NCBI GenBank assembly: GCA_964016885.1
Contig: OZ024741.1
Location: 341,372,001-341,436,000 of the forward strand
Origin: Eledone cirrhosa
Taxonomy: Eukaryota
DNA length: 64,000 nucleotides
Direction of reading: 5' to 3'
In this document: in pieces, positions 14,170 through 64,000 of the stretch
Position numbering within the stretch: position 1 is the first letter of the stretch
How the letters are laid out: every line of letters starts with the position of its first letter
Translations under genes and position numbers: made by a program
The notes under the pieces: model-generated
Database searches by the model: none
The model's input: the letters and a program-made list of their open reading frames with translations, nothing else
What the model was told of the DNA's origin: nothing

Positions 14170-14206
<37 letters not shown>

Positions 14207-18154: not shown

Positions 18155-18538
18155 TCATCATCATCATAATTTTACGTCTGCTTTTTCTTGCTTGCAAGGG
18201 TGGGACGGGAACTGATTCTGGCTGCATTTCAACAGCTGGATGCCCTTCCTAACACCAACCTCATTTACAGTGAGTGCTGGGTACTTTTTTTTTCGTGGCG
18301 CCTACACATCCACTTTTCACTGTGGGCTGGGTGCTTTTTGCCGTGGCACCTCCACGACCATTTTGCAGTGGAATGATAGGGACCCCAGTCCCTATCATCT
18401 CATTTCTACAGCTGAGTAAACTGGAGCAATGTGAAATAAAGTGTCTTGTTCAAGGAAACAACACATCACCCGGTCTGAGAATTGAACTCACAACCTTTCG
18501 ATTGCAAGGCCAATGCTTTAACCACTAAGCCATGTGCC
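18155..18538 (-). mobile_element. Full SINE (tRNA head, CORE-like middle, RTE 3' tail)
   Basis: Reverse complement of 59503-59888. Confidence 0.92.
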
Positions 18539-24478: not shown

Positions 24479-24539
24479 TATATATATAATAATAGAGTAA
24501 TAATAATAATATATATAATAATATAGTAATGATAATAAA

Positions 24540-26199: not shown

Positions 26200-26237
<38 letters not shown>

Positions 26238-32710: not shown

Positions 32711-35700
32711 CATACTACACTATATACTACATTATATACTATACTATATACTACATTATATACTATACTATATACCACACTGTATACTACAGTATATACT
32801 ACACTGTATACTACACTATATACTACACTATATACTACACTATATACTACACTATGAACTACACTATATACTACACTATATACTATACTATATACTACAC
32901 TATATACTACACTATATACGATATACTATATTATATACTACACTACATACTACACTATATACGACACTATATACTATACTATATACTACACTATATACTA
33001 TACTATATACTACACTATATACTATGCTATATACTATATCATATACTACCCTATATACTATACTATATACTACACATATACTACACTATATACTACACTA
33101 TATACTACACTATATACTATACTATATACTATACTATATACTACACTATATACTATACTACATACTACACTATATACTATACTATATATTATGCTATATA
33201 CTATACTATATACTACACTATATACTACAGTATATACTATACTATATACTACACTATATACTACACTATATATTATACTATATACTACACTATATACTAT
33301 ACTATATACTACACTATATACTACACTGTATACTACACTATATACTACACTGCATACTACACTGTATACTACATATATACTACACTATATACTACACTAT
33401 ATACTACACTATATACTATACTATATACCACACTGTATACTACAGTATATACTACACTGTATACTACACTATATACTACACTATATACTACACTATGAAC
33501 TACACTATATACTACACTATATACTATACTATATACTACACTATATACTACACTATATACGATATACTATATTATATACTACACTACATACTACACTATA
33601 TACTACACTATATACTATACTATATACTACACTATATACTACACTATATACTATACTATATACTACACTATATACTATGCTATATACTATATCATATACT
33701 ACCCTATATACTATACTATATACTACACATATACTACACTATATACTACACTATATACTACACTATATACTATAATATATACTACACTGTATACTACACT
33801 ATATACAATACTGTATACTACACTATATACTACACTGTATACTATACTATATACTACACTATATACTATACTATATACTACACTATATACTACACTATAT
33901 ACTGCACTATATACTACACTATATACTACACTATATACTACACAATATACTACATTATATACCACACTATATACTACACTATATACTACACTATATACTA
34001 CACTATATACTACACTATATACTACACTATATACTATACTGTATATTACACTATATACTATACTATATACTACACTATATATTACACTATATACTATACT
34101 ATATACTACACTATATAGTATGCTATATACTATATTATATACTACACTATATACTATACTATATACTACACATATACTACACTATATACTACACTATATA
34201 CTACACTATATACTACACTATATACTATACTATATACTACACTATATACTATACTATATACTACACTATATACTACACTATGTACTATACTATATACTAT
34301 ACTATATACTACACTATATACTACACTATATACTACACTATATACTACACTATATACTAACTATATACTACACTATATACTATACTATATAATGCACTAT
34401 ATACTATATACTACACTATATACTACACTATATATTACACTATATACTACACTATATACTATACTATATACTACACTATATACTACACTATATATTATAC
34501 TATATACTACACTATATACTATACTATATACTACACTGTATACTACACTGTATACTACACTGTATACTACACTATATACTACACTGTATACTACACTGTA
34601 TACTACACTATATACTACACTATATACTACACTATATACTACACTATGAACTACACTATATACTATACTATATACTATACTATATACTACACTATATACT
34701 ACACTATATACTATATACTATCCTATATACTATACTATATAGTACACTATATACTACACAATATACTATACTATATACTACACTATATACTACACTATAT
34801 ACTACACTATATACTACACTATATACTATACTATATACTACACTATATACTATACTATATACTACACTATATACTATACTATATACTATACTATATAATA
34901 CACTATATACTACACTATATACTACACTATATACTATACTATATACTACACTATATACTATACTATATACTACACTATATACTATAATATATACTACACT
35001 GTATACTACACTGTATACTATACTATATACTACACTATATACTACACTATATACTACACTATATACTACACTATATACTATACTATATACTATACTATAT
35101 ACTACACTATATACTATACTATATACTACACTATATACTACACTATATACTATATACTATCCTATATACTATACTATATAGTACACTATATACTACACAA
35201 TATACTATACTATATACTACACTATATACTACACTATATACTATACTATATACTACACTATATACTATACTATATACTATACTATATAATACACTATATA
35301 CTACACTATATACTACACTATATACTATACTATATACTACACTATATACTATACTATATACTACACTATATACTATAATATATACTACACTGTATACTAC
35401 ACTGTATACTATACTATATACTATACTATATACTACACTATATACTACACTATGAACTACACTATATACTATACTATATACTATACTATATACTACACTA
35501 TATACTACACTATATACTATATACTATCCTATATACTATACTATATAGTACACTATATACTACACAATATATTACACAATATACTATACTATATACTACA
35601 CTATATACTACACTATATACTACACTATATACTATACTATATACTATACTATATAACACACTATATACTACACTATATACTACACTATATAATACACTAT

Positions 35701-38700
35701 ATACTACACTATATACTACACTATATACTATACTATATACTACACTATATACTATAATATATACTACACAGTATACTACACTGAATACTATACTATATAC
35801 TACACTATATACTACACTATATACTATACTATATACTACACTATATACTTCACTATATACTACACTATATACTATACTATATACTACACTATATACTACA
35901 CTATATACTACACTATATACTACACTATATACTATACAATATACTAACTATATACTACATTAGATACTATACTTTATACTACACCATATACTATACTATA
36001 TACTACATATGCTATACTACACTGTATATGCTATACTACACTGTATACTACATTATATACTATACTATATACTACACTATATACCACACTATATACTACA
36101 CTATCTACTACACTATATACTATACTGTATACTACACAATATACTATAATGTATACTACACTATATACTATACTATATACTACACTATATACTACAGTAT
36201 ATACTATACTATATACTACACTATATACTACACTATATATTATACTATATACTACACTATATGCTATACTATATACTACACTATATACTACACTGTATAC
36301 TACACTGTATACTACACTATATACTACACTATATACTACACTATATTCTACACTATATACTACACTATGAACTACACTATATACTATACTATATACTATA
36401 CCATATACTACACTATATACTACACTATATACTATATACTATACTATATACTATACTATATAGTACACTATATACTACACAATATACTACACAATATACT
36501 ATACTATATACTACACTATATACTACACTATATACTACACTATATACTATATTATATACTACACTATATACTACACTATATACTATACTATATACTATAC
36601 TATATACTATACTATATACCATACTATATACTACACTATATACTACACTATATACTATACTATATACTACACTATATACTATACTATATACTACACTATA
36701 TACTATACTATATACTACACTATATACTATACTATATAATACACTGTATACTACACTATATACTACACTATATACTATATGACACACTATATACTACACT
36801 ATATACTATATACTACACTATATACTACACTATATACTACACTATATAATACACTATATACTACACTATATACTACACTATATACTATACTATATACTAC
36901 ACTATATACTATACTATATACTACACTATATACTATACTATATACTACACTGTATACTACACTATATACTACACTGTATACTATACTATATACTACACTA
37001 TATACTATACTATATACTACACTATATACTACACTATATACCACACTATATACTACACTATATACTACACTATATACTACACTATATACTACACTATATA
37101 CTATACTATATACTACACTATATACTATACTATATACTACACTATATACTATACTATATACTACACTGTATACTACACTATATACTACACTATATACTAC
37201 ACTATATACTATACTATATACTACACTATATACTATACTATATACTACACTATATACTACACTACATACTACACTATATACTACACTATATACTATACTA
37301 TATACTACACTATATACTACACTATATACTACACTATATACTATACTATATACTATGCTATATACTATATCATATACTACCCTATATACTATATACTACA
37401 CTATATACTACACTATATACTACACTATATACTATACTACATACTATACTATATACTACACTATATACTATACTACATACTACACTATATACTATACTAT
37501 ATATTATGCTATATACTATACTATATACTACACTATATACTACAGTATATACTATACTATATACTACACTATATACTACACTGTATACTACACTGTATAC
37601 TACACTATATACTACACTATATACTACACTATATACTACACTATATACTACACTATGAACTACACTATATACTATACTATATACTATACTATATACTACA
37701 CTATATACTACACTATATACTATATACTATACTATATACTACACTATATACTACACTATATACTATACTATATACTATACTATATAACACACTATATACT
37801 ACACTATATACTATATACTACACTATATACTCCACTATATAATACACTATATAATACACTATATACTACACTATATACTACACTATATACTATACTATAT
37901 ACTACACTATATACTATACTATATACTACACTATATACTATAATATATACTACACTGTATACTACACTATATACAATACTGTATACTACACTATATACTA
38001 CACTGTATACTATACTATATACTACACTATATACTATACTATATACTACACTATATACTACACCATATACCACACTATATACTACATTATATACTACACT
38101 ATATACTACACTATATACTACACTATATACCACACTATATACTACACTATATACTACACTATATACTACACTATATACTACACTATATACTATACTGTAT
38201 ACTACACTATATACTATACTATATACTACACTATATACTACACTATATACTATACTATATACTACACTATATAGTAAGCTATATACTATATTATATACTA
38301 CACTATATACTATACTATATACTACACATATACTACACTATATACTACACTATATACTACACTATATACTACACTATATACTATACTATATACTATACTA
38401 TATAACAAACTATATACTACACTATATACTATATACTACACTATATACTACACTATATAATACACTATATAATACACTATATACTACACTATATACTACA
38501 CTATATACTATACTATATACTACACTATATACTATACTATATACTACACTATATACTATAATATATACTACACTGTATACTACACTATATACAATACTGT
38601 ATACCACACTATATACTACACTATATACTACACTATATACTACACTATATACTATACTGTATACTACACTATATACTACACTATATACTATACTATATAC

Positions 38701-41700
38701 TACACTATATAGTAAGCTATGTACTATATTATATACTACACTATATACTATACTATATACTACACATATACTACACTATATACTACACTATATACTACAC
38801 TATATACTACACTATATACTATACTATATACTACACTATATACTACACTATATACTATACTATATACTATACTATATACTACACTATATACTACACTATA
38901 TACTACACTATATACTACACTATATACTACACTATATACTACACTATATACTAACTATATACTACACTATATACTACACTATATACTATATACTATCCTA
39001 TATACTACACTTTATACTACACTATATACTACACTATATACTACACTATATACGATATACTATATTATATACTACACTACATACTACACTATATACTACA
39101 TTATATACTATACTATATACTACACTATATACTATACTATATACCACACTGTATACTACAGTATATACTACACTGTATACTACACTATATACTACACTAT
39201 ATACTACACTATATACTACACTATGAACTACACTATATACTACACTATATACTATACTATATACTACACTATATACTACACTATATACGATATACTATAT
39301 TATATACTACACTACATACTACACTATATACTACACTATATACTATACTATATACTACACTATATACTACACTATATACTATACTATATACTACACTATA
39401 TACAATGCTATATACTATATCATATACTACCCTATATACTATACTATATACTACACATATACTACACTATATACTACACTATATACTACACTATATACTA
39501 TACTATATACTATACTATATACTACACTATATACTATACTACATACTACACTATATACTATACTATATATTATGCTATATACTATACTATATACTACACT
39601 ATATACTACAGTATATACTATACTATATACTACACTATATACTACACTATATATTATACTATATACTACACTATATACTATACTATATACTACACTATAT
39701 ACTACACTGTATACTACACTATATACTACACTGCATACTACACTGTATACTACATATATACTACACTATATACTACACTATATACTACACTATATACTAT
39801 ACTATATACCACACTGTATACTACAGTATATACTACACTGTATACTACACTATATACTACACTATATACTACACTATATACTACACTATGAACTACACTA
39901 TATACTACACTATATACTATACTATATACTACACTATATACTACACTATATACGATATACTATATTATATACTACACTACATACTACACTATATACTACA
40001 CTATATACTATACTATATACTACACTATATACTACACTATATACTATACTATATACTACACTATATACTATGCTATATACTATATCATATACTACCCTAT
40101 ATACTATACTATATACTACACTATATACTACACTATATACTACACTATATACTATAATATATACTACACTGTATACTACACTATATACAATACTGTATAC
40201 TACACTATATATTACAGTGTATACTATACTATATACTACACTATATACTATACTATATACTACACTATATACTACACTATATACTACACTATATACTGCA
40301 CTATATACTACACTATATACTACACTATATACTACACAATATACTACACTATATACCACACTATATACTACACTATATACTACACTATATACTACACTAT
40401 ATACTACACTATATACTACACTATATACTATACTGTATACTACACTATATACTATACTATATACTACACTATATATTACACTATATACTATACTATATAC
40501 TACACTATATAGTATGCTATATACTATATTATATGCTACACTATATACTATACTATATACTACACATATACTACACTATATACTACACTATATACTACAC
40601 TATATACTACACTATATACTATACTATATACTATACTATATACTACACTATATACTATACTATATACTACACTATATACTACACTATATACTATACTATA
40701 TACTATACTATATACTACACTATATACTACACTATATACTACACTATATACTAACTATATACTACACTATATACTATACTATATAATGCACTATATACTA
40801 TATACTACACTATATACTACACTATATACTATACTATATACTACACTATATACTACAGTATATATTATACTATATACTACACTATATACTATACTATATA
40901 CTACACTATATACTACACTGTATACTACACTGTATACTACACTATATACTACACTGTATACTACACTGTATACTACACTATATACTACACTATATACTAC
41001 ACTATATACTACACTATGAACTACACTATATACTATACTATATACTATACTATATACTACACTATATACTATATACTATCCTATATACTATACTATATAG
41101 TACACTATATACTACACAATATACTATACTATATACTACACTATATACTACACTATATACCACACTATATACTATACTATATACTATACTATATAACACA
41201 CTATATACTACACTATATACTACACTATACAATACACTATATACTACACTATATACTACACTATATACTATACTATATACTACACTATATACTATACTAT
41301 ATACTACACTATATACTATAATATATACTACACTGTATACTACACTGTATACTATACTATATACTACACTATATACTACACTATATACTACACTATGAAC
41401 TACACTATATACTATACTATATACTATACTATATACTACACTATATACTACACTATATACTATATACTATCCTATATACTATACTATATAGTACACTATA
41501 TACTACACAATATACTACACAATATACTATACTATATACTACACTATATACTACACTATATACTACACTATATACTATACTATATACTATACTATATAAC
41601 ACACTATATACTACACTATATACTACACTATATACTACACTATATACTACACTATATACTACACTATATACTACACTGTATACTATACTATATGCTACAC

Positions 41701-44700
41701 TATATACTACACGATATACTATACTACATACTACACTATATACTACACTATATACTATACTATATACTACACTATATACTACACTATATACTACACTATA
41801 TACTACACTATATACTATACAATATACTAACTATATACTACACTATATACTATACTTTATACTACACTATATACTATACTATATACTACATATGCTATAC
41901 TACACTGTATATGCTATACTACACTGTATACTACATTATATACTATACTATATACTACACTATATACCACACTATATACTACACTATCTACTACACTATA
42001 TACTATACTGTATACTACACAATATACTAAAATGTATACTACACTATATACTATACTATATACTACACTATATACTACAGTATATACTATACTATATACT
42101 ACACTATATACTACACTATATATTATACTATATACTACACTATATGCTATACTATATACTACACTATATACTACACTGTATACTACACTGTATACTACAC
42201 TGTATACTACACTATATACTACACTATATACTACACTATATACTACACTATATTCTACACTATATACTACACTATGAACTACACTATATACTATACTATA
42301 CACTATACTATATACTATACTATATACTATACTATATACTACACTGTATACTACACTATATACTACACTATATACTATACTATATACTATACTATATACT
42401 ATACTATATACTATACTATATACTATACTATATAGTACACTATATACTACACAATATACTACACTATATACTACACTATATACTACACTATATACTACAC
42501 TATATACTATATTATATACTACACTATATACTACACTATATACTATACTATATACTATACTATATACTATACTATATACTATACTATATACTACACTGTA
42601 TACTACACTATATACTACACTATATACTATACTATATACTATACTATATACTATACTATATACTATACTATATACTACACTATATACTATACTATATACT
42701 ACACTATATACTATACTATATACTACACTATATACTATACTATATACTACACTATATACTATACTATATACTACACTATATACTATACTATATACTACAC
42801 TGTATACTACACTATATACTACACTATATACTATATTATATGACACACTATATACTACACTATATACTATATACTACACTATATACTACACTATATACTA
42901 CACTATATAATACACTATATACTACACTATATACTACACTATATACTATACTATATACTACACTATATACTATACTATATACTACACTATATACTATACT
43001 ATATACTACACTGTATACTACACTATATACTACACTGTATACTATACTATATACTACACTATATACTATACTATATACTACACTATATACTACACTATAT
43101 ACCACACTATATACTACACTATATACTACACTATATACTACACTATATACTACACTATATACTATACTATATACTACACTATATACTATACTATATACTA
43201 CACTATATACTACACTATATACTATACTATATACTACACTGTATACTACACTATATACTATACTATATACTACACTATATATTATACTATATACTATGCT
43301 ATATACTATATCATATACTACCCTATATACTATACTATATACTACACTATATACTACACTATATACTACACTATATACTATACTACATACTATACTATAT
43401 ACTACACTATATACTATACTACATACTACACTATATACTATATTATATATTATGCTAAATACTATACTATATACTACACTATATACTACAGTATATACTA
43501 TACTATATACTACACTATATACTACACTATGAACTACACTATATACTATACTATATACTATACTATATACTACACTATATACTACACTATATACTATATA
43601 CTATACTATATACTACACTATATACTACACTATATACTATACTATATACTATACTATATAACACACTATATACTACACTATATACTATATACTACACTAT
43701 ATACTACACTATATAATACACTATATAATACACTATATACTACACTATATACTACACTATATACTATACTATATACTACACTATATACTATACTATATAC
43801 TACACTATATACTATAATATATACTACACTGTATACTACACTATATACAATACTGTATACTACACTATATACTACACTGTATACTATACTATATACTACA
43901 CTGTATACTATACTATATACTACACTATATACTATACTATATACTACACTATATACTACACTATATACCACACTATATACTACACTATATACTATACTAT
44001 ATACTACACTATATACTACACTATATACTATACTGTATACTACACTATATACTACACTATATACTACACTATATACTATACTGTATACTACACTATATAC
44101 TATACTATATACTACACTATATAGTAAGCTATATACTATATTATATACTACACTATATACTATACTATATACTACACATATACTACACTATATACTACAC
44201 TATATACTACACTATATACTACACTATATACTATACTATATACTATACTATATAACACACTATATACTACACTATATACTACACTATATAATACACTATA
44301 TAATACACTATATACTACACTATATACTACACTATATACTATACTATATACTACACTATATACTATACTATATACTACACTATATACTATAATATATACT
44401 ACACTGTATACTACACTATATACAATACTGTATACCACACTATATATTACACTATATACTACACTATATACTACACTATATACTACACTATATACTATAC
44501 TGTATACTACACTATATACTATACTATATACTACACTATATACTACACTATATACTATACTATATACTACACTATATAGTAAGCTATGTACTATACTGTA
44601 TACTACACTATATACTATACTATATACTACACATATACTACACTATATACTACACTATATACTACACTATATACTACACTATATACTATACTATATACTA

Positions 44701-47183
44701 TACTATATACTACACTATATACTATACTATATACTACACTATATACTACACTATATACTATACTATATACTATACTATATACTACACTATATACTACACT
44801 ATATACTATACTATATACTACACTATATACTACACTATATACTATACTATATACTGCACTATATACTATACTATATACTACACTATATACTACACTATAT
44901 ACTATACTATATACTACACTATATACTATATTATATACTACATATGCTATACTACACTGTATATGCTATACTACACTGTATACTACACTATATACTACAC
45001 TATATACTACACTATAAACTACACTATATACTAACTATATACTACACTATATACTATACTATATACTGCACTATATACTATACTATATACTACACTATAT
45101 ACTATACTATATACTACACTATATACTACACTATATACCACACTATATACTACACTATATACTACACTATATACTACACTATATACTACACTAAATACTA
45201 CACTATATACTATACTATATACTACACTATATACTATACTATATACTACACTGTATTCTACACTATATACTATACTATATACTACACTATATACTACACT
45301 ATATACTATACTATATACTATGCTATATACTATATCATATACTACCCTATATACTATACTATATACTACACATATACTACACTATATACTACACTATATA
45401 CTACACTATATACTATACTACATAATATACTCTATACTACACTATATACTATACTACATACTACACTATATACTATACTATATATTATGCTATATACTAT
45501 ACTATATACTACACTATATACTACAGTATATACTATACTATATACTACACTATATACTACACTGTATACTACACTGTATACTACACTATATACTACACTA
45601 TATACTACACTATATACTACAATATGAACTACACTATATACTATACTATATACTACACTATATACTACACTATATACTATATACTATACTATATACTATA
45701 CTATATAGTACACTATATACTACACAATATATTACACAATATACTATACTATATACTACACTATATACTACACTATATACTACACTATATACTATACTAT
45801 ATACTATACTATATAACACACTATATACTACACTATATACTATATACTACACTATATACTACACTATATACTACACTATATAATACACTATATACTACAC
45901 TATATACTACACTATATACTATACTATATACTACACTATATACTATACTATATACTACACTATATACTACACTATATACCACACTATCTACTACACTATA
46001 TACTATACTGTATACTACACAATATACTATAATGTATACTACACTATATACTATACTATATACTATACTATACTATATACTATACTATATATTATGCTAT
46101 ATACTATACTATATACTACACTATATACTACAGTATATACTATACTATATACTACACTATATACTACACTATATATTATACTATATACTACACTATATAC
46201 TATACTATATACTACACTATATACTACACTGTATACTACACTATATACTACACTGTATACTACACTGTATACTACACTATATACTACACTATATACTACA
46301 CTATATTCTACACTATATACTATACTGTATACTACACAATATACTATAATGTATACTACACTATATACTATACTATATACTATACTATACTATATACTAT
46401 ACTATATACTATGCTATATACTATACTATATACTACACTATAAACTACAGTATATACTATACTATATACTACACTATATACTACACTATATACTACACTA
46501 TATACTACACTATATACTACACTATATACTATACTATATACTACACTATATACTACACTGTATACTACACTATATACTACACTGTATACTACACTGTATA
46601 CTCCACTATATACTACACTATATACTACACTATATACTACACTATATACTACACTACGAACTACACTATATACTATACTATATACTACACTATATACTAC
46701 ATACTATACTATATACTATACTATATAGTACACTATATACTACACAATATACTACACAATATACTATACTATATACTACACTATATACTACACTATATAC
46801 TACACTATATACTATACTATATACTATACTATATACTATACTATATACTATATACTATACTATATACTACACTATATAATATACTATATACTATACTATA
46901 TACTATACTATATACTATACTATATACCATACTATATACTACACTATATACTATACTATATACTACACTATATACTATACTATATACTATACTATACTAT
47001 ATACTACACTATATACTATGCTATATACTACACTATATACTATACTATATACTACACTATATACTACACTATATACTATAGGCTATACTATATACTATAC
47101 TATATACTATACTATATACTATACTATATACTATACTATATACTACACTATATACTACACTATATGCTATACTATATACTATA
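32711..47183. repeat. ~14.5-kb tandem satellite, 12-bp unit ACTAC/ACTAT + ACTATAT
   Basis: Direct reading. Recurring variant units define higher-order blocks. Confidence 0.99.
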
Positions 47184-48314
47184 TTGTAAATGTAACTTTA
47201 TTTCATAAATACATTACAAATCGTTTGCAATTCCTTCAGAATGAAAATATAAACAGAGCAGATAAATAAATTTACAGTAGAATAACATAACAAATATCCT
47301 TTAAATATATACATAAATAACATTACAAATGGTTAGATAACATTATAAATAGCTCGCGATTCATTCAGAAAGATATATTTTTTTAATGTTAAAATATTAA
47401 AGAAAATGTAAAGCATGGGGTGAACAATGGAGCCAACACCAGAGCAAAAGACAGCAACGTCCCGAGGAGTACTGGGCCACCTCTCTAATGATTTTTGAGG
47501 CAAGCCAGCACACTAGGAAAGTTGCCTCGTGTAATGGCAAGGCTGATGCACTGAAACAGCCAAGCGCCCTCGCGAGATTCGCCATTTACCTCTATTCGGC
47601 GAGGCCCCAGTGAAGAGAAGAACCTCGCAGTCAGCGGACCGACTCCCCCAAACATCTCGAAAGCCACAGGCTGAAAAATGTAGCTGGCCGACAGATCAGA
47701 GTATTTGAGGGTCCTACTCCACTCGGCTGCAGAAGCTGTGGCTCTCGTCCTAACCGCAGAATCCAGGATGTGGGAAAGATCAAAAGAGTCACTAACAGTG
47801 ATGTCCCAGACAAGGCACCTGCCTCTCGACCAGGGGCACAGGGTAAGACTGTCAGGCCATTTGCCGTCGCTTCTGGACAACCCAGATGGTTCCAAGACCT
47901 AGGGGATATTCGCCCGGGCCAAAGCTCTCTTCAGAATGAGGTTTAGCTCCGTGTGAGGCGAGAAGCGTCCGGCATTCAGGCGGCAAGAAAGACCGTGGAG
48001 GCCTGCGGAGTCAAGGAGTTTGCCGCATTGGCACCTCAAACCCATGCAAACATCAGCTCCCACTCTGAGGGCGATGGAGACACGAAGTTTGTCCAGGCTG
48101 AGTAAGCCACCAACGTTGGCCACGGGTAGGGCACCGACCCAGTCGCCTGAGTATTTGGCGCTGGCAGATAGGAAGCGGCACCTTGCAAACTGATCTGACT
48201 GGACGAAGAGGGAGTCGAAGGTGGCCTTCGAACTTATGCCGTCCCAAGTTCTCTGACTTCGACTGTCCTCCACCTTCTCAGGAAGAGACAAGCCCAACTC
48301 ACTCCATTGCTGGA
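47184..48314 (-). mobile_element. 5'-truncated CRE-like non-LTR retrotransposon (zinc knuckle plus restriction-like endonuclease)
   Basis: CQCGKLLDSAGLHGLSC..HTELN..ANIP*VLEPSGLSRSDGKWPD..LVWDIT..KYSDL..PVAFE..AITRGN, in one frame with one stop at 47899-47901. AATAAA at 47197-47202 (minus). Confidence 0.85.
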
Positions 48315-48797
48315 CTGTATATTACACTATATACTATACTATATACTACAGTATATACTACACTATATACTACACTGTATACTATATACTATACTATATA
48401 CTATACACTACACTATATACTACACTATATACTACACTGTATACTATATACTACACTATATACTACATTATATACTACACTATATACTACACTATAAACT
48501 ACACTATATACTATACTATATACTACACTATATACTACACTATATACTACACTATATACTGCACTATATACTACACTATATACTACACTATATACTGCAT
48601 TATATACTACATTACATACTACACTATATACTACACTATATACTACACTATATAGTGCACTATATACTATACTATATACTATACTATATAGTATACTATA
48701 TACTACATTATATACTATATACTATACTATATACTACACTATATACTATACTATATACTATAATATATACTACACTATATACTACACTATATACTAT
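48315..48797. repeat. Continuation of the 12-bp satellite
   Basis: Same unit. Degenerate traces continue at 49125-49147, 49248-49267 and 52462-52665. Confidence 0.95.
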
Positions 48798-52679: not shown

Positions 52680-53365
52680 AATTATTGTGCACAGTGCTCA
52701 GGTGCACTACAACTCATCAAAGGTGCATGTATAGTACATAGAATAATTTACAAATGTCAGGAAAGTGAAGAGTGTATGAGTCATGATATACATGTGTGCG
52801 TGTGTATGGAGGGGGGTATATCAGGTATAGTGTTGGCGAATCTCAGGAAGCATGGAGGTTTTAAAGGATGCAATGCCTTGGCAGCTAACAACTGACACAG
52901 GTATTTTGTTCCATGCTTCAGCAACTCTGACCATGAAAAATTGTTTTTTTGAATTTGTAGGCATGCCCACGTTGTTTTTTTGAATTTGTAGGCATGCCCA
53001 CGTGTGTTAGACACATGGAATTCAAAAAGGTGCCCAAGGTTGTTGTTGGCAGATGGTTAACAATTTTGTGGGTGTTTATCAATTCAGTTGCCAGACGTCG
53101 AAGCTTCAATGTATCCATGCCCAGGGAAGCAAGGCATTCAGAGTATGGTAGATGCCTGATGGGAGGTATTCGCTTGGTTGCATGTCTCTGAACAGTTTCC
53201 AGGAGGTCAATGTTCTGAGAAAGATAGGGGTTCCAGACTGGTGATGCAAATTCTAAGTGTGGCCACACTATAACCATATACAGCTTTAAATAGATAGCTG
53301 GAGAGCAACTGACAAAGGTCTTGATGAGTGATGCCAAGACACTCTCGGCCTTCTTGACAATTTTA
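52680..53365 (-). mobile_element. CR1-group LINE 3' fragment
   Basis: LY..IVWPHLEFASPVWNPYL..IDLLETVQRHATKRIP..LPYSECLASLGMDTLKLRRL. Confidence 0.85.
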
Positions 53366-53527
53366 ATTTTAGAGATATTATACTATATACTATGCAATAT
53401 ATTAACTTTGAGCAATTTGAGCAAAATAGAAGTGGGGCACGGCACAAATAGACTGAAAAACACTGATTTAGGCCTAGATTGGAAATTATTATTATTGATA
53501 TTGTTGATGTTATTTTTATCAATATCA

Positions 53528-54241
53528 CATGGAAGTCAAACCTGGGTGCTGTCTGTAGAAGACTTGCGCAGATTAGAAAGAAACAAAGCTTGCATGCTCC
53601 GATGGATGTGTAATAGTAATATACATGAACGGCAAAGTATAAACGAATTGAGAGAGAGACTGAGAATCAGAGGAATCAAATGCTGTGTGCAGGAGAGGAG
53701 GTTATGTTGGTATGGACATGTGATGCATATGAAGGATGACAGCTGCATAAAAAGGTGCAGAGCACTAGAAGTCGATGGAAGCTGCGGAGTGGGGAGACCC
53801 AAGAAGACCTGGGATGAGGTGATAAAGGCCGACCTTATCCAATTGCACCTCTCAAGAGCAATGACACACAAGCGTAGCCTCTGGCATCACGCATTAATAC
53901 AGAAGAGCCCCTCCCCCCACGGGAACAAGCTGAAGCTGAAGCATATAGACAATATGCCCCCACACCCTCCCACTGCAAAGTGGTCGTGGAGGTGCCACGG
54001 CAAAAAAGCCCCCAGCCCACACTGTAAAGTGGACGTGTAAGCGCCATGAAAAAAAGCACCCAGCACTCACTGTAAATGAGGTTGGTGTTAGGAAGGGCAT
54101 CCAGCTGTAGAAATCAAGCCAGAATTAGTTCCTGTATGAGCAAGACAAGGTCAGCCAACTAGACACTGCTCACAACAGGACAACCCGTCTAACCCATGCT
54201 AGCATGGAAGAACGGATGTAAAACGGTGATGATGATGATGA
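53528..54241 (+). mobile_element. RTE 3' fragment (family of 28797-31117)
   Basis: HGSQTW..RRLCWYGHVM..GRPKKTW; 3' UTR with two pseudoknot units; GAT tail. Confidence 0.93.
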
Positions 54242-54620
54242 TCACAGAGGTAAATTGTTTATGTAGCAGAGAAAATAATGTAATGAAATATCTTATCCAT
54301 TTATAGTTGCAAAGATAAAAGAGGGGAAAACAAGAATGGAGGAATTTTATTGGAAAATATGTAATAACATTTTTCATCAAAATTCCTTTTTGGTCTGAAG
54401 TAAACATTTTCAGGAATGATATCAGGAATATAATACATAGATTTGATATATATATACACACACATAGACAGTATATATCTGAGTGAATGTGCGTGTATAT
54501 ATATATTGTGTATGTATACATCATCCAACCGATGCAAGCATGGAAAAGCAGGCGTAAAAACGATGATGATGACTATATATATATATATGTATATGCATAT
54601 TTATATATGTACATATATGA

Positions 54621-54667
<47 letters not shown>

Positions 54668-54671
54668 TATA

Positions 54672-55299
54672 CGTTATAAGGGCCAGACACATTATAAAAA
54701 TGGCTGTGAAGTGACAAGCCAAGCAGCCGAAAAAATGAGCAATCTAAACAGGTTAACAAAAATTACCTGGACCTTCCAGTGGGAGGTTTCTGTGACTCCT
54801 AAATCAAGTATACTGTCTGCTTCCGGGCCTAGCAATTAATTAGTTAATTCAATTAGACAATTCTATTAACTGATTAATTGTTTAAGTTTATTCAAAAACA
54901 ACCTGGTCGAGAGCTTACTTCGATTTGTGCAGTTTTTTGCAATTTTTTGCAATTCTTTTACACATTTTGAATGCACCCGCCAAAAACAGAGGTTACCTCC
55001 TTTGCAGGGTAACCACGTGGGATAATGGCTTCACTAATGCTTCATTTCAACCCGTAGGCGGTTGAGAGCAAAAACCTGTTGACAAAGTGTCTACCTTGTT
55101 CGATCATTATACCAAAAGCTTACAACGAAAGCAGACAGTATACTTGATTTAGAGTCACAGAAACCTCCCATTGGATTATACCACCATGTCCCAGGAAGGT
55201 CCAACTAATTTTTGTTAACCTGTTTATATTGCTCGTTTTTCTGGCTGCCTGGCTTGTCACTTCACAGCCATTTTTATAATGTGTCTGGCCCTTATAACA
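54672..55299. mobile_element. MITE with ~150-bp TIRs and TA flanks (Tc1/mariner-like)
   Basis: TA|CGTTATAAGGGCCAGACACATTATAAAAATGGCTGTG.. and ..CACAGCCATTTTTATAATGTGTCTGGCCCTTATAACA|TA. Confidence 0.85.
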
Positions 55300-55689
55300 T
55301 ATGTTAATTGCTCTGGCTTCTTCCTAGTCCATTGAGCGTTTGCCTGCATATCTTGAAAATTGCATTTCGTTTTGTTTTGGCTGCCACCGAAATACGATTC
55401 GCTGAAATTATATTTATATACATATATATATATATACACACAAACACACACATAAATACAAACGCAAATACATATATATATATACATACACTGCCATATA
55501 AATATACATAGATACATGCATGCATACCCTCACACACACACATATATGTGTGTATATATATATATACATATTACATTCAAAGTTATGGATGTCATGATTG
55601 AGATAATCTTAAACATGTCGTGTCTCCAACTATTTATTTTCACTTCATGTTTTATATTTATTTTTAGTTCTATTTTTGCCCCGCCCTTT

Positions 55690-55865
55690 AATTTTTTCCC
55701 CCACTAACTGCCCCCTCACTCATTCTTGGAGTTCCTCCCCCAACTTTCATGATGAAGGATTTATGTCCAAAACGTTGTAAACAACCCCACCCCCTACTCT
55801 AAGCAAGCATGAAGCTAATAACACAATATAACATTTACTCTACATTTACTTTCTTTGTTTGTTAT
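55690..55865 (+). mobile_element. Penelope-like 3' remnant with a mutated hammerhead core
   Basis: ATGATGAAGGATTTATGTCCAAAACGTTGTA at 55749-55779, with C3 and G12 lost. Homologous to 32500-32685. Confidence 0.5.
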
Positions 55866-56009
55866 TTCGAATTATATATATATATATATACAGAAGCGAA
55901 AAGCGAAAACCAACCAAACAGTGAGTGTGTTCTGTTATTAATTCTGGTAATAATACACAAATATGACCCTCCCCAAGTATAACAATATATATATATATAT
56001 ATATATATA

Positions 56010-56925
56010 TTCAGAACTGGATGGAAAAAGTTCAGAGAGCTTATACCACTATTAGCCGCTAAAGGGTTCTCCCTAAAAATGAAAGGCAGGTTATACGATG
56101 CCTGCATACGAACAGCAATGTTGCATGGCAGTGAGACCTGAGCATTGTGTGCAGAGGATATACGCAGACTAGAGAGGAACGAAGCTTGCATGCTCCGCTG
56201 GATGTGTAACAGTAATATACGTGAACGGCAAAGCATAAGCGAACTAAGGAAAAAATTAGAAATAAGAGGGATCAGATGTTGTTTACTCGAGAGAAGGCTA
56301 CGTTGGTATGGTCACGTGATGCGCATGAAAGACGACAGCTGTATAACAAAGTGCAGGGCAATAAAGATAGACGGTAGCCACGGAGTAGGCAGACCCAGAA
56401 AAACCTGGGACGACCTGATAAATTCTGACCTCACACACTTACACCTCTCCAAGACAATGTCACTGGACCGAGATCTTTGGCGGTACTCAGTAATAGAGAA
56501 GACCCGCCTTACCTAAATACAAAGTAAAACCTACTACAGTCAGTAGGCATCTCTAACAAAACACACCCCCGTCCCACCACCCCCACCCCATCCACACCGC
56601 CCCTTTCAATGTAAAGTTATGTTGGTGCCACAACATCCAGGCCGAAACAAATGAGATCGTGTAGGTGTCACGACAAAAAAACACACAGTCCACGCTGTAA
56701 TGTGGCCGTGTAGGCAACACGGTAAAAACCTTGCAACCCCACACTGTAAATGTGGTTGGTGTTAGGAAGGGCATCCAGCTGTAGAAAACTCGCCAGACAG
56801 TCCTATGCGAGCAAGACAACCACTCTTGCCTCAAGTGGGAAAACTCCCGTCCAAACCCATGCAAGCGTGGAACATGGACGTTAAACAACAACAACAACAA
56901 CAACGACGACGACGACGACGACGAC

Positions 56926-56928
<3 letters not shown>
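56010..56928 (+). mobile_element. 5'-truncated RTE LINE (family of 22783-24478)
   Basis: Near-identical to 23610-24460. Tail changed to (AAC)n(GAC)n. Confidence 0.95.
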
Positions 56929-56962
<34 letters not shown>

Positions 56963-56963
<1 letters not shown>

Positions 56964-57355
56964 AGGCACATGGCTTAGTGGTTAGAGCATTGAGCTTGCA
57001 ATCGAAATGGTTGTCAGTTCAATTCTCAGACCGGGTGATGTGTTGTTTCCTTGAGCAAGACACTTTATTTCACATTGCTCCAGTTTACTAGCTGTAGAAA
57101 TGAGATGATAGGACTGGGGTCCATATCATTCCACTGCAAAGTGGTTGTGGAGGTGCCATGGCAAAAAAGCACCCAACCCACACTGTAAAGTGGACGTGTA
57201 GGTGCCACGGAAAATAAAGCACCCAGCACTCACTGTAAATGAGGTTGGTTTTAGGAAGGGCATCTAGCTCTAGAAATCCAGCCAGAATCAGTTCCCATCC
57301 CACCCTTACAAACAAGGAAAAGCGGACGTAAATGATGATGATGATGATGATGATA
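56963..57355 (+). mobile_element. Full SINE (tRNA head, CORE-like middle, RTE tail)
   Basis: Same family as 59503-59888. Confidence 0.92.
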
Positions 57356-58229
57356 TACATATATACCAGTAATTTGGACTCTGTGCTGATGTCAATTAGC
57401 ATGTTTCGAACTGACAACAGTTAATCTGGCCATATATAGTTTATAGATAAAACTTTCTTGACAACATTCTTCTTTTGAGTCTCTCAAAGGAGACACACCA
57501 CATACAGTTGGTTTTCACTAAGCACAGAGATGTAGCACTTAGCCAAACACTCCAGCCCTCTCAACAAAGGCCAGATTCAACAAAGGTCAGTCTACAAAAC
57601 ATAGTAAATAGCATCTTTTGAATCATTGTACCTAAGCATACACCACAACCACAGAAGCCTTGTATCTGTATACTGTCAACAACAGGCTCATATCAGGTTT
57701 TTAAATTAATAAATACATTTAAGTAGTAACTTGGTTTTTATCTCATTACTTATGTGATGAAGCTAAATCATTTACCCAAAGAATCATCACATCATCATCA
57801 TCATATTGAATACTGTAGCTCATTTGAACACCTGCAATCTCTAGTCACACTGTATCAGGCACATAAGTCTTCACCTACACTCTACACACACATAACCACA
57901 TCACAAAGCAATCCACAAGAGAACAAGGAACCACAGTACCAACTAACATTACCAACTTATCTACTGCTATATTGGTATGTTAGTTTGTACTATGGTTCAT
58001 TGGAGAACATAAGTTTACTATGAAAGCTATATCTAACAGCACATGTGATGATTTGCCAGCAAATATAAGAGGAAGAAAATAATTGTATTTCAAGGTTAGC
58101 CTTAGGATGGGGGATAAGGGGGAAGGAGGAGGAGGAGAAGAAGAAGAAGAAATGGTGACAAAGTTATTTGAATACATGTGTGCATTTGTGTGTGGGAGTG
58201 AATTTGAGTAAGCACATATATATATATAT

Positions 58230-58443
58230 ATAGAATGGAAAACGAAAAATCAGTGATGCATCGGAACTCAATTTATTGCATATTACAATTGTTTCCCCGG
58301 CGAAACAATTGTAATACGCAATAAATTGAGTTCCGATGCATCACTGATTTTTTTGCTTTCCATTCTATCATACTCTGCTCCGTAGGAGCATAGAGTGCTC
58401 AACTGGAATACCACCTATGGATGCATCTTAGATACCATAAGAC
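58230..58443 (+). mobile_element. Fold-back Penelope-like remnant (palindrome 58230-58368 plus tail) retaining the hammerhead 3' half
   Basis: Centre GTTTC-CCCGGC-GAAAC, then GAAAC-AATT-GTA, AATAAA and the ACTC..GAGT tail hairpin. (TA)n flanks. Confidence 0.75.
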
Positions 58444-59502
58444 ATATATATATATATATATATATATTCATTTTATTATAGAAATGACTTCTATAGGACT
58501 AGAACCTTTTCATTTGTAAGAAATTATCAGGACTTTCTTGATGATTATGAATGAAACAGTTCTAGGCGGGTCCTGTATACATATATCTGCATGGTGGCTG
58601 CCAACTCGTTTTCGAGTACGGCCACTACTTTATATCCATGTAGGAGAAACCCTACCGATGGGCTGAACGAGTGTGACTTTTTAGTCCAGCCTGCGACATG
58701 AAAACTCTGGTACAAACATTACACTTGTGACAATTATTGACACATAGTGCTGGGCCCATGGTACCATGTGACGACAAGTGCAGAGAGATCTCCAGATATA
58801 AAGCAATGCATGTGCCGTGAAGCTTTTATAGTGAGCAAAGGCACTGCACAAAGCCAGTCCTCCTCTCTTAACCAAGATGATATTTACCAAAAAGAAGAAC
58901 AAGTCAACATCATTGGATACCATCAGGGTTGCAGGTGTTATATCAGAGTTTTCCTTCTCCTAGAATTCTGCCTTGACAAAGGCTAAGGGGTCATCTCTCC
59001 TGTATGTATGTATATATCTGCATGGTGGCTGCCAACTCGTTTTCGAGTACGGCCACTACTTTATATCCATATAGCCATCATATATATGTATATATCTAGG
59101 AAGGTATACACCAGTAGCCATGTATTTTAGACAATATAGTATATAACATGTATATAGACACTTACATATAAACACTCATGAAGCCAGATATCTATACACT
59201 CAACCACATACAACCACTCCCGCAACAACAAAAAAATACTTTCATGAAGAAATTTTACAATTAGATAAACAATGTATGCCCTTATTTGGACAGACAACCC
59301 CTCCTGGTGAGACAGCCAGTTAACCACCAATGCTTTCAGCAATCAGTTTGGAACTAGCTGTTGAAACAGCAAGAGCTCAACCATCGGGGCCCTGACTCTT
59401 TATAATGTAACCATACTCTACTATCCCGAGTATCAAGTACTCTGGTGAGTAATGGTTTAACCAGTTTCAAACTGAAGCTATCTTGATTTATATATGTATA
59501 TG

Positions 59503-59884
59503 GAGGCACATGGCTTAGTGGTTAGAGCATTGGCCTTGCAATCGAAAGGTTGTGAGTTCAATTCTCAGACTGGGTGATGTGTTGTTTCCTTGAGCAAGAC
59601 ACTTTATTTCACATTGCTCCAGTTTACTCAGCTGTAGAAATGAGATGATAGGACTGGGGTCCCTATCATTCCACTGCAAAGTGGTCGTGGAGGTGCCACT
59701 GTAAAAAAGCACCCAGCCCACACTGTAAAGTGGACATGTAGGTGCCACGGAAAAAAAGCACCCAGCACTCACTGTAAATGAGGTTGGTGTTAGGAAGGGC
59801 ATCCAGCTGTAGAAATCAAGCCAGAATCAGTTCCCGTCCCACGCTTGCAAGCAGGGGAAAAGCGGGCGTAAATTGAAATGATGA

Positions 59885-59888
<4 letters not shown>
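59503..59888 (+). mobile_element. Full SINE (tRNA head, CORE-like middle, RTE 3' UTR-derived tail)
   Basis: A box TGGCTTAGTGG, B box GAGTTCAATTC. The 3' ~170 nt match the RTE 3' UTR at 53970-54135. (GAT)n tail. Confidence 0.92.
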
Positions 59889-59935
<47 letters not shown>

Positions 59936-60037
59936 CGGGGTGTCCCAAAAAATGTATACACACTTTGATTATCAGTACAGGCAATATTTTTATTATACTG
60001 CTGTTGAAGTGTGTACATATTTTTTGGAGACACCATG
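59936..60037. mobile_element. ~100-bp Tc1-type MITE
   Basis: TA|CGGGGTGTCCCAAAAAATGTATACACACTT..AAGTGTGTACATATTTTTTGGAGACACCATG|TA. Confidence 0.8.
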
Positions 60038-60231
60038 TATATATATATATATACATGTTTTATATACACATACATATATACATATTTTTATATACCCACA
60101 TATGTATATACATATTTTTATATACCCACATACGTATATACATATTTTTATATACCCACATACATATATATATACATACACACACACACACATATATATA
60201 CGCATATATAGATATATACATATATATGTAT

Positions 60232-60336
<105 letters not shown>

Positions 60337-60432
60337 GGGGTCTTACTGGTTCCTATTACCCACTCTACTACCTCAAGTATTGAGTACTTTGGTGCGTTAT
60401 GGTCCACCTGGTTCCTTACCACATTTCCTTCG

Positions 60433-60474
<42 letters not shown>

Positions 60475-62060
60475 AATATATACTCTGATTTGATTCATCA
60501 ATCAATCTATTGAATTAATTAGTAATGCTCAACGGTGTCTTACATAATTAATTTTATTGATTGAGTGCTTACCATGATAGAAAAGAAAAAGAGAAGGTAA
60601 ATTCCGTGAATTTGTGAAGAACCCGTCAATAATTGTGTATAAGGATAGTGATGCATGGATAATTCCTTCATCTGCCATTAGAGGTTTTAACTGTCAGCAT
60701 GATGAAATTGGTAAAGCGACGAGATTCTCTGCTGAAATTATTAGAGACAATCTGCAGCAAGTTGTTACTCTCTTGTGTCATTCCTCAACTGTCTTCTGCA
60801 GGAATGAAGCAGTAAAAGAGGAAAAAAGAGGGAAGACATGCTGCTCAATAATATGTTTCTACCTGAAATGTTAACGAGTTTATGCATCTGGGAGGGCATC
60901 CAGCCATAGAAACCAAGCCAAAACCAGTTCTGTGTGAGCGAATTACTGTACCTCGACCTGGTCTCTCACAAAGGGACAGCCTGTCCTACCCATGATAGCA
61001 TAGAAGATGGACGTTAAATGATGATGATGACACATACATACACATATACAAAGGTTTATATCTAGCTACACAGATAGATAGACAACAGGTATAAAGCAGA
61101 CATATCTAGAGAGGTTGGTAGATAGTTAAGACAGGCAGGAAGATAGATAGACACGTAGAGCAAATAGATAGATAAGTAGATAGACAGATATACAATATTT
61201 CTGTCATGTTCAGACAGACATATAATTTACTCTGTCTGCCGGGACTGTGGGGTGGCCAGTCCACCGGGGCTGTGGGGCAGCAAGCGCATGGGCCCCCATT
61301 TGCACATAATAGTGAGAGATGGGGAGAGCAGGCGAGATGGAAGCAGTGACAGTGGGAGTTTGGTTTCTTTGTGTTCAGATCTGGTGTATATGTATATGTT
61401 TCACAGACACATTACTCATTCTAAGCCTTGCTAGCAGCAAAAGAAGGGGTTACCAAGACTATGATGATGATATAGAGAGGCTGGTTGATACGTAAGGCAG
61501 GTAGACAAACGGGCAGATAGAGAGACAGGTAGGGCAAACAGATAGACAGATAGATATAGATATACATACATGCACACATACATATACACTTACAGAGGTG
61601 TATAGCTAGCTAGACAGATACAAATCAGACAAATATAGATGGCTAACTAATAACATGTGCTTTCTTTCCTCTTTCTTTTCCTTACTTTCTTTTTCTTCTT
61701 CTCTCTCCCAACAACCTCTCGTCTCTTTTTCAATCTTTTAATGAAGGACTAGCATAAAAAACATTAAAACTTTTTGGCAATTTTACCAATCATTAAACAA
61801 ATATACCATTCTCATATTGTATTGTTCTCCTGTGTTGTGTTTCCTTCTTGACATTTATCATATGCATGTGCATATATATATATATTGTGATTATTCATGA
61901 AGTAATAATATAATCATGAGTACATTTCTCATTTATATTCAAACACTGACTATTCAAATATAATTCTCATTATCATAACATTTCCTGCTGTTTACTCTTT
62001 AAAATCACACCCACTCACACACACTCACACACACACACACACACACACAGACACACACAG

Positions 62061-62094
<34 letters not shown>

Positions 62095-62099
62095 ACACA

Positions 62100-62136
<37 letters not shown>

Positions 62137-62352
62137 TACATTGATCAAACACCACTGTATTCAGTTAATAAGTTTTTGATATACTCCTGTTTAATTGTTT
62201 TTCATTTTTACTTTAATGTTATTTTTGTTGTTGTTTCTATTGTTATTGTTGTGTTTAATTTGGTTGCTGTTTGTTGTTATTGTTGTTGTTGCTGCTTCAG
62301 TTATTTTTGTTGTTATTGTTCAATATTTTCTATTCTCAATACACAATACAAG

Positions 62353-62803
62353 TATCATCATCATCATCATCATCAACGTTTAACGTCCGTGTTCCACGCT
62401 TGCATGGGTTTGGACGGGGGTAGTCCCACTTGAGGCAAGAGTGGTTATCTTGCTCGCATAGGACTGTCTGGCAGGTTTTCTACAGTTGGATGCCCTTCCT
62501 AACACCAACCACATTTACAGTGTGGGTCTGGGAGGTTTTTACCGTGTTGCCTACACGGCCACATTACAGCGTGGACTGTGTGTTTTTTTGTCGTGACACC
62601 TACACGATCTCATTTGTTTCGGCCTGGATGGTGTGGCACCAACATAACTTTACATAGAACGGGGTGGTGTGGATGGGGTGGGGGTGGTGGTGGTGGGACG
62701 GGGGGGGGGGGGGTATTTTGTTAGAGATGCCTACTGGCTGTAGTAGGTTTTACTATGTATTTAGGTAAGGCGGGTCTTCTCTGTTACTGAGTACCGCCAA
62801 AGG
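62353..62803 (-). mobile_element. RTE 3' end (family of 22783-24478)
   Basis: Near-identical to 27390-27806. Confidence 0.92.
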
Positions 62804-62865
62804 TGTAGATTTCAAATTTGCTCTACTGCTGACTTGAGACTTGAACTACTACTACTACCACCACC

Positions 62866-62896
<31 letters not shown>

Positions 62897-63003
62897 TAAC
62901 GACTTTTAGACCCTTTCAAGTGTGGGAACAGGCTCAGGCCAGATGTGAAATGTTGTCCTTCCCAAATCTGATAATAGGTCCAGACCAGATGTTAAATATA
63001 ATC

Positions 63004-63034
<31 letters not shown>

Positions 63035-63153
63035 AACTACTGAAATGTGAAATGTTGCCCCTGTCCAGCTGGTAATAAACCCAGGACAGATGTGAAAGTG
63101 AAATGTGGGCCCACAAAGCTAGTAGATTTACTTCCCTATTTCCATCCAAGTCC

Positions 63154-63575
63154 CCAGCCCACCCTGTAAAGTGGTAGTTTTGGTGCCACAACAAAAAGCA
63201 CTCAGCTCACACTGTAAAATGGTCATGTAGGTGTCAATGAAAAAGAGCCCAGCCCACACTGTAAAGTGGTTGTGTAGGTGACATGACAAAAAGCGCCCAG
63301 TCCACACTTTTAAGTGGTCGTGTAGGTGTCATGACAAGAAGCACCCAGCCCACACTTAAAAGTGGTTGTGTAGGTGTCACGACAAAAAGCACTCAGTACA
63401 CTTTGTAAATATGGCTGGTGTTATGAATAGCATCCAGCTGTAAAAACCAAGCCAAAATCAGTTCTGTGTTAGTAAGATAGTCATCTGACCTGGCATGTCT
63501 TTTAATAGGACAATTCGTCTAACCCATGCCAGCGTGGAAAAATAAACATTAAACGATGATGATGATGATGATGAC
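63154..63575 (+). mobile_element. RTE-type 3' UTR with five tandem ~47-bp units
   Basis: Unit consensus CAGCCCACACTGTAAAGTGGTCGTGTAGGTGTCACGACAAAAAGCACC, then the conserved terminal motif and (GAT)n. Confidence 0.85.
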
Positions 63576-64000
63576 ACTTGAGAATTTCCTAATATAATAT
63601 TTTTCATTTGCATGTGCGTGTGCATGCATATGTGTGTATGTGCCTGTCTGTGTGTGTGTGTCTGTGTGTGTACATGTGCATTCATGTGTGAGTGTGTGTG
63701 TGTGTGCATGTGTCTGTGTGTGATTAGTTGCTAGTTTTGAAATCCAAATCATGTCAGCATGAAAAAAACAAACAGTAAAAGACAATCCCTAAAATAAAAC
63801 TATAATACAACCATGACAATTCAACTATTTTAATTCTCCTCAGTTCTCTTTTGAATGTTTCCATATTCCAAATTTACTTTACTGACTAGAAATACCACTG
63901 ATAAAAACACCACCATCAATCACAACAACAACAACACTATCACCACCCCTAATAACACCATCACTATCCCCCACCAGCAACAACAACAACACTATCACCA

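Follow-up and report, generated by a model that had tools for sequence, protein, structure and literature searches.

The tandem array and its setting

A short tandem array near the end of a 64,000-nt stretch of the Eledone cirrhosa genome (the window) raises the question of whether its repeated unit is a selected RNA structure, and what such a structure would do in the RNA of a retrotransposon. The first-pass annotation had described a unit of about 47 nt, a hairpin followed directly by an H-type pseudoknot, and had read it as a module of variable copy number in the 3' UTRs of RTE-type LINEs and SINEs. Its tandem arrangement was borne out by repeat detection: the array runs from 63153 to 63396 on the forward strand, with a period of 48 nt, 5.1 copies and 79% matches, and each unit consists of two elements that we call PK-A and PK-B. 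It belongs to the 3' end of a 5'-truncated and decayed RTE-type LINE of family R4 (63146–63574, +; similar to other R4 loci from 63146 on), where the cassette is followed by the RTE 3' stem-loop signal and a (GAT)n tail (63517–63574, +, evident from the sequence). The (GAT)n ends reported earlier for these elements were confirmed. Between array and tail lies a decayed copy of a terminal element, PK-C (63417–63453, +), whose bulged stem, AGGGCA loop and downstream GCC partner were read against intact copies. The family names used here (R1, R1b, R2, R3, R4, F4, F6 and T1) were coined in this analysis; F4 stayed a mixed group and is represented by two array units only.

The units of the array are in different states of decay. 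PK-B of unit 4 (63317–63345, +) has an S1 of 6 bp, an L1 of 2 nt, an S2 of 5 bp, an L2 of 0 nt and an A-rich L3 of 5 nt, with no pair lost and two wobbles. Unit 5 comprises PK-A (63346–63365, +), with a CCAC/GTGG helix and a predicted crossing CAG/CTG helix that is here decayed to CTT, and PK-B (63365–63393, +), with both stems intact apart from wobbles. Unit 3 is short of one S2 pair, unit 1 keeps 4 of 6 pairs in S1, and unit 2 could not be parsed. In terms of exact motifs, CCAC-n8-GTGG is found in four of the five units, while GTCGTG (63317) and CACGAC (63378) occur once each and in different units, so that there is no perfect unit in the array. The two folds offered as examples, 63365–63393 and 18330–18358 on the minus strand, parse as claimed; the final G of the hairpin doubles as the first G of S1a.

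The H-type geometry claimed for each unit is beyond chance for an intact one: dinucleotide shuffling of a single such natural unit gave a 6+5 bp fold of this kind 68 times in 20,000. Only two of the five units here keep both stems. Over a 251-nt stretch holding the array, the summed pseudoknot score of a crude energy model was reached by 0 of 60 shuffles. The same scan, which cannot model bulged stems or long loops, gave no excess for single copies of R2, R1 and F6 (16, 24 and 60 of 60 shuffles as good, respectively) and a weak excess for a SINE copy (6 of 60).

The unit is present at all eight of the other places where it had been seen in the window, and also at 10654, 20064, 26218, 27375 and 62349. 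Two cassettes lie in 3' UTRs according to the ORF list and sequence similarity: an R2-family copy at 24254–24479 (+) behind the ORF at 22898–24115, and an R3-family copy at 53978–54246 (+) behind the ORF at 53294–54040. By similarity, there is a further R3-family cassette of one unit at 30882–31110 (+), an R2-family cassette with its tail at 62349–62607 (−), and other R2-family copies at 26218–26468 and 27375–27624 (both −) and 56657–56816 (+). The cassette is found in SINEs as well, at 59509–59890 (+) and, by similarity, at 18209–18370 (−), 57132–57294 (+) and 10654–10766 (+). As a feature of RTE 3' UTRs, the unit holds for R2, R3, R4 and F6, but not for R1: the R1-family element of the window (14185–16979, −; ORF and similarity), which is 5'-truncated, has no 3' UTR at all and carries the 3' signal in its last codons. 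Upstream of this truncated R1, decayed PK-B/PK-A units of F4 type (17460–17660, −) apparently represent a separate old insertion.

Four predicted folds in one cassette

In our structural model, the 48-nt unit is one module of a larger cassette, made of PK-B, PK-A, PK-D and a terminal PK-C around GGAAGGGCATCC. The four kinds of element are found in varying order and number. In the F6 loci (L332–L360), for instance, the 3' UTR repeats a unit of about 125–140 nt that holds all four types, and in R2 copies (L072–L075, L090, L101:1130–1540 minus) a 112-nt block that includes PK-C is often duplicated.

PK-B has the crossing helices, short L1, L2 of 0–1 nt and A-rich L3 of an H-type pseudoknot, with 6+5 bp in R4 and in unit 1 of R3; in F6, L2 is 4 nt. 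Over 11 family units, 88.7% of the cells of the pairing table are paired, a value reached by 2 of 500 shuffles, and controls in which the strands were slid gave 21–46%. There are two double-changed pairs, one in each helix, a number that 298 of 500 shuffles reach as well, and 17 of the 151 cells lack a pair. The covariation taken alone is thus not significant, and the pattern is compatible with the structure, a modest result that falls short of proof. One further regularity is that the base just before CAC varies over all four letters and in every family unit can pair within S1 or S2.

The main helix of PK-A changes on both sides between families, from CACA/TGTG to CTCA/TGAG and from CCAC/GTGG to CCAT/ATGG. 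Its crossing CAG/CTG helix does not vary across families, and PK-A may therefore be a plain hairpin; this S2 does not enter the pair count, since the register of the terminal units was off. PK-D, which is found in R1, R1b and F6, would consist of two crossing helices of 6–7 bp with a hairpin in L3, and each crossing helix shows one double change between R1/R1b and F6. PK-C terminates the cassette in all families, with an outer stem, a 2-nt bulge, a Y-R pair, a bulged A, GGA/TCC and the loop AGGGCA, for which a partner GCC or TGCY lies 10–13 nt downstream. For a comparison, 21 rows were picked by hand, each for a distinct family (7 from this genome and 14 from outside). Over these rows the PK-C stem has 98% of its positions paired and changes on both sides at three pairs; 0 of 500 shuffles reached this percentage, although the search pattern had fixed much of the stem in the 14 outside rows. 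The crossing helix over the same rows is 76% paired in an ungapped register, with wobble-type changes only.

The statement that pairing is kept across families stood for 195 of 198 family-majority pairs, with the proviso that the helices were fitted to those same majorities. The other three are mismatches. A C.A mismatch in S2 is the majority state of two units: unit 2 of R3 (18 of 22 copies) and unit 2 of R2 (26 of 33). Almost all double changes in the cassette helices are transitions. Nothing stands out in nested folding (z from +0.15 to −1.44, uninformative for pseudoknots), which also offers a rival partner for S2b. Covariation appears better for PK-C and PK-D than for PK-B alone. We regard PK-C as quite likely to be a selected RNA structure and PK-B and PK-D as rather likely to be so; for PK-A as a pseudoknot, the least certain part, the chances look about even. 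These grades, like those given for mechanisms below, are judgements and were not computed.

PK-C beyond this genome

A 22-letter pattern of the PK-C core matches an estimated 140,000 or so stretches of metagenome contigs and 61 stretches in GTDB, and some of these outside matches sit on contigs with RTE-type ORFs. PK-C also occurs in the 5' UTRs of published hagfish RTEs. About 130 of the 148 outside matches that were read belong to one group of short elements starting about 30 nt before the core; in this group, which was entered as four rows, the downstream partner of PK-C is mostly absent. Of the GTDB matches, 12 of the 61 loci were read, plus L242, and the remainder was screened for RT homology only. 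One candidate member, L257, was dropped as a likely chance match. A number of contigs binned as prokaryotic (L242, L244, L249, L259, L266, L273, L276, L287 and L297) hold RTE or SINE sequence of eukaryotic type and are thus likely contamination.

With the linker left free, a GCY partner for the loop was found in 11 of 15 outside families, where 3.3 would be expected; 0 of 5000 shuffles reached this level. The linkers between PK-C and this strand are otherwise unrelated among the outside families, and the partner strand is kept. The core sequence is nearly unchanged across proteins that are only 46–65% alike. The retention of TGCY can, however, also come from shared descent.

Position in LINEs and presence in SINEs

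The Eledone cirrhosa genome (3.0 Gb) is rich in LINEs with a single ORF of 1022–1040 aa, carrying Exo_endo_phos, RVT_1 and a PHD-type finger. We call them RTE-type on account of their architecture, their (GAT)n tails and a domain that they have in common with published RTEs. The place of the cassette in these elements differs between families. In four full-length R1 copies it precedes the ATG, and the microsatellite directly follows the stop codon. R1 is also the family with the most intact ORFs, as about 40 of 109 scored matches lie in open frames of at least 1020 aa. In R1b the cassette precedes the ORF start in 15 of 25 loci, often as tandem 89-nt units, and in both outside RTEs on L242 PK-C is likewise on the 5' side. 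From its partner strand to the ATG the distance is 7 nt (L366), 11 and 19 nt (L242) or 41 nt (L085); the 800 nt upstream of the R1 ATG contain 20 other ATGs. In eight R2 and eight R3 loci, by contrast, the cassette lies behind the ORF, and the 5' UTRs that these loci display hold none. It lies behind ORF ends in F6 too, and R4 arrays follow the C-termini of RTE ORFs in L005, L006, L010 and L015.

The cassette is ancestrally a domain of the 5' UTR, and not a 3' element by origin. A tree built on 159 columns places F6, R2, R3 and R4 in one clade with a support of 93/89, which is under the bar of the tool itself; the exception is a short fragment labelled R4 (L012) that was placed with R1. The 3' signal is intact inside the ORF ends of R1 and L242, whereas the ORF ends of R2 and R3 hold a decayed copy of it and a fresh one stands after the cassette. 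Taken together with the clade of 3' cassettes, this makes one capture the simplest history, and it weakly supports a single move from 5' to 3' in which a short element of cassette plus 3' signal would have been captured behind an ORF.

The element at 59509–59890 has the make-up of a tRNA-derived SINE: a tRNA-like head (59509–59572), which scores 29.9 bits with the Rfam tRNA model where the cut-off is 29, an R3-type cassette, and a 3' signal and tail of R1 type. Non-coding derivatives that keep PK-C and the 3' signal are also seen in L266, L287, L258, L159 and the hagfish SINEs. The suggestion that SINEs captured the module was right in that SINEs do carry the cassette, but the traffic was richer in direction, as the LINEs appear to have gained their 3' copy.

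In R2 and R3 elements whose 5' UTRs are visible (L071, L072, L077 and L080) and lack a 5' cassette, a CCAAT-like motif occurs near the 5' end; perhaps it marks an internal promoter for Pol II that these elements acquired on the relocation of the cassette.

A possible relation to twister ribozymes

PK-A bears a likeness to the twister and T-variant ribozymes at the 5' end of the RTE element Perere-3 (PMC8501958). Both share the order P2, GC, TAAA, P2', but PK-A is without P4/L4 and, except in the first R1 unit, without the GAGGG strand; the twister layout P4-L4-P2-GAGGG is that of Table 1 in the same source. In hagfish RTE-2_EBu, PK-C abuts a stretch that matches this layout by eye. PK-A stands directly before PK-C just as the twister core does in RTE-2_EBu, and this placement is part of the likeness. 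One outside locus (L258) has kept CTCC/GGAG and GGTT and lost P4/L4, with the same order as in PK-A.

A search of the genome with twister-P1 returned no match on the cassette. Its nine matches, of 40–50 bits and all below the cut-off of 67.2, belong to a distant RTE lineage, T1 (L386–L394, e.g., L386:1501–1600), which has 24–29% amino acid identity to R1 and whose copies start at the cleavage site. In T1 the twister-like core runs directly into another kind of compact pseudoknot, in which GGGGC/GCCCT and GGGGT/ACCCC cross with an L3 of 0; all 10 of its pairs are kept in six of nine copies. The cassette itself lacks the twister parts P4/L4 with CCCAAGC and the GAGGG strand that forms T1 and T2. 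The 5' ends of R1 do not map to the cassette either: 19 of 25 copies run upstream through a long leader and a poly(T), two start at the boundary and four further 3'. Since the catalytic parts are absent and the ends map elsewhere, PK-A would be at most a catalytically dead relic of a twister.

Several other candidates were tried along the way. A rearranged active twister in the R1 leader is not supported by the end mapping (2 of 25 copies at the boundary), and the idea that the poly(T) is flanking DNA and not part of R1 was rejected by the 19 copies that run through it. Fits of the cassette to HDV-like and hammerhead ribozymes failed by eye. Old copies resembling the 5' part of hagfish RTE-4_EBu (window 4979–5103, +; L110, L341, L035, L350 and L101:5143–5229) abut PK-C with CCCT-GC, a GTCG/CGAC hairpin and TAAA-AGGG, which is possibly another degenerate twister.

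Growth of the arrays

In 600 kb of unselected DNA together with the window, runs of one unit (40) and two units (14) make up 54 of 60; the others have three units (1), five (2), 13, 14 and 19. The best 30 loci (18 distinct places counted) have 8–50 units each, with variants private to each locus. Of 290 units, 102 have S1 broken at its CpG pair, where independence predicts 109.7, and compensatory changes, sought among the units of long arrays, were not found. Given breakage at the rate of independence and locus-private variants, the best account of long arrays is that they grew as minisatellites once the element had inserted. Beyond about three units, arrays look like expansions of this kind, subject to neutral decay, for which no function is needed. 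Copy number as a tuned trait is thus mostly not what is seen, given the predominance of one or two units and the lack of constraint on long arrays. We set aside a contrast between shared and private variants: changes that keep the pair make up 17 of 33 shared and 74 of 269 private variants (P = 0.008), but recurrent CpG decay is enough by itself to make about half of the shared variants pair-keeping. In the R1b 5' UTRs (L361–L385) there are from one to eight or more tandem 89-nt units, and cassette expansion therefore took place on the 5' side too. It is worth pointing out that the cassette seeds a frequent minisatellite in this genome.

What the cassette may do

The cassette is real and probably selected, and both larger and older than the 48-nt unit suggested. 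Whatever it does, one function must serve non-coding SINEs as well as LINEs that have the cassette before the ATG or behind the ORF. Each of self-cleavage, protection of the 5' end and replacement of poly(A) fails in one of these three settings and is disfavoured, while ribosome docking fits all of them. Our preferred reading, to which we give a probability of roughly 45%, is that the cassette docks the RNA on the ribosome and in this way would capture newly made RTE protein. Its original job would be cap-independent initiation downstream of a self-cleaving 5' end, and it would have been put to new use, behind the ORF and in SINEs, as a tether that does not depend on position. Docking accounts for the spacing from the ATG and for the place behind a cap-removing ribozyme. 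In Perere-3 of Schistosoma, RNA cleaved by the twister still supports translation (PMC8501958).

The observations would be explained nearly as well if the RTE protein itself bound the pseudoknots and so recognised its template at another site in addition to the 3' stem-loop, which we consider somewhat doubtful. Every non-coding derivative retains both PK-C and the 3' signal, the cassette is independent of position, and the proteins have a PHD-type finger behind the RT; there is also a precedent in the zinc finger that binds the 3' UTR pseudoknot of the R2 element (PMC11601368). Direct binding, however, leaves the close ATG spacing of the 5' families unexplained, it sits uneasily with the near constancy of the core despite the divergence of the proteins, and T1 has a different pseudoknot in the same slot.

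A more skeptical reading is that only the terminal domain matters, possibly as a promoter or enhancer at the DNA level, and that the 48-nt unit is a quasi-palindromic minisatellite with incidental pairing. The arrays of up to 50 units with their locus-specific variants and neutral decay speak for it, the covariation of PK-B is weak, and Kojima 2018 (PMC5786205) suggests that the RTE 5' UTR parts of SINEs bind regulators. Yet the variable base before CAC finds its S1 or S2 partner in each family unit, both PK-D helices have double changes, and the PK-C partner strand is kept while the linker turns over, all of which makes this reading unlikely.

To our mind it is less likely again that the folds guard the RNA against exonucleases, either by a cap-like block at the 5' end made by self-cleavage or, in the 3' UTR, by stopping Xrn1 so that a short mobile RNA remains. 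Such protection would suit the twister-like core adjoining PK-C in RTE-2_EBu and the start of the commonest outside family about 30 nt before PK-C, and a cap-like role of the R2 element ribozyme fold is described in PMC13708176; but a cassette behind the ORF cannot shield that ORF from 5' decay, the R1 cassette lies deep inside the leader, and in the SINE the tRNA head precedes it. Very improbable is the earlier idea of a 3' pseudoknot array that replaces poly(A) and tunes stability or translation by copy number as in tobamoviruses, for despite the tandem H-type geometry in the 3' UTRs of R2, R3, R4 and F6 it fails on R1, which has the same microsatellite tail, many intact ORFs, no 3' UTR and its cassette before the ATG, as well as on the 5' cassettes of outside RTEs, the unconstrained long arrays and the lack of an Rfam match.

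Ribosome docking can be extended into a broader proposal, which is speculative and which we think improbable as a whole. Across animals, a compact pseudoknot behind the 5' ribozyme of RTEs would be a minimal ribosome-binding module; in the lineage studied here the ribozyme would have become a relic, the pseudoknot a stack of four types, and the stack would have moved to the 3' side and served SINEs as an Alu-like tether. If true, this would explain why pieces of RTE 5' UTRs form SINE bodies.

Related systems

The upstream pseudoknot domain of tobamoviruses strings several small H-type pseudoknots together in an RNA that has no poly(A) tail. The likeness lies in this serial arrangement; the cassette differs in that it belongs to a retroelement and is not tied to the 3' end, being on the 5' side in R1, R1b, L242 and the hagfish RTEs. 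Rfam gave no match on the cassette in window positions 53000–64000 (E up to 5) or in eight loci, a tighter version of the search pattern had no match among viral contigs, and a phage collection gave one weak chance match. Other parallels are the SRP9/14 tether by which Alu RNA reaches the ribosome and the small IRES and CITE elements of viruses. What is shared is the proposed logic, in which a non-coding RNA reaches the ribosome making the mobilising protein through a structured domain that tolerates different positions; sequence and fold are unrelated, and the ribosome link of the cassette is seen as position and spacing only.

The pseudoknot-hinge-stem of the R2 element (PMC11601368) is likewise a pseudoknot upstream of a 3' stem in the 3' UTR of a non-LTR element. 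It belongs to another clade with another protein and is single, not tandem, while the fold of the cassette is predicted and the cassette is found in 5' UTRs as well.

The sequence is already known as the RTE 5' UTR part of bipartite SINEs (Kojima 2018, PMC5786205; Kojima 2020, PMC7245038); no earlier account appears to exist of its fold, of its relocation to the 3' UTR or of the twister relic. These two papers assign it no RNA structure: the word 'stem' is absent from the main text of Kojima 2020, the cassette motif was not found in the supplement of Kojima 2018 as far as it was accessible, and the latter only speculated on why SINE bodies retain such parts. What differs here is that autonomous LINEs carry the part behind the ORF, and that it is multiplied and enlarged by PK-A, PK-B and PK-D. 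In the literature within reach we found no description of the cassette pseudoknots, and the alpha and beta domains of SINEBase (PMC3531059) may cover the sequence.

With a pseudoknot model, the retention of RTE 5' UTR fragments in the SINE bodies of distant animals becomes testable, and a LINE that remained successful after its 5' cis-element was shifted behind the ORF offers a natural test of position independence. Empirical optimisation of RTE UTRs for RNA-based gene insertion is under way (PMC13708176), and a structural rule for the cassette could guide this work.

Among the other contents of the window are a 14.5-kb array (32712–47181) of about 1218 copies of a 12-bp unit, and ORF fragments from other LINE-like elements at 47485–48321 and 52918–53382.
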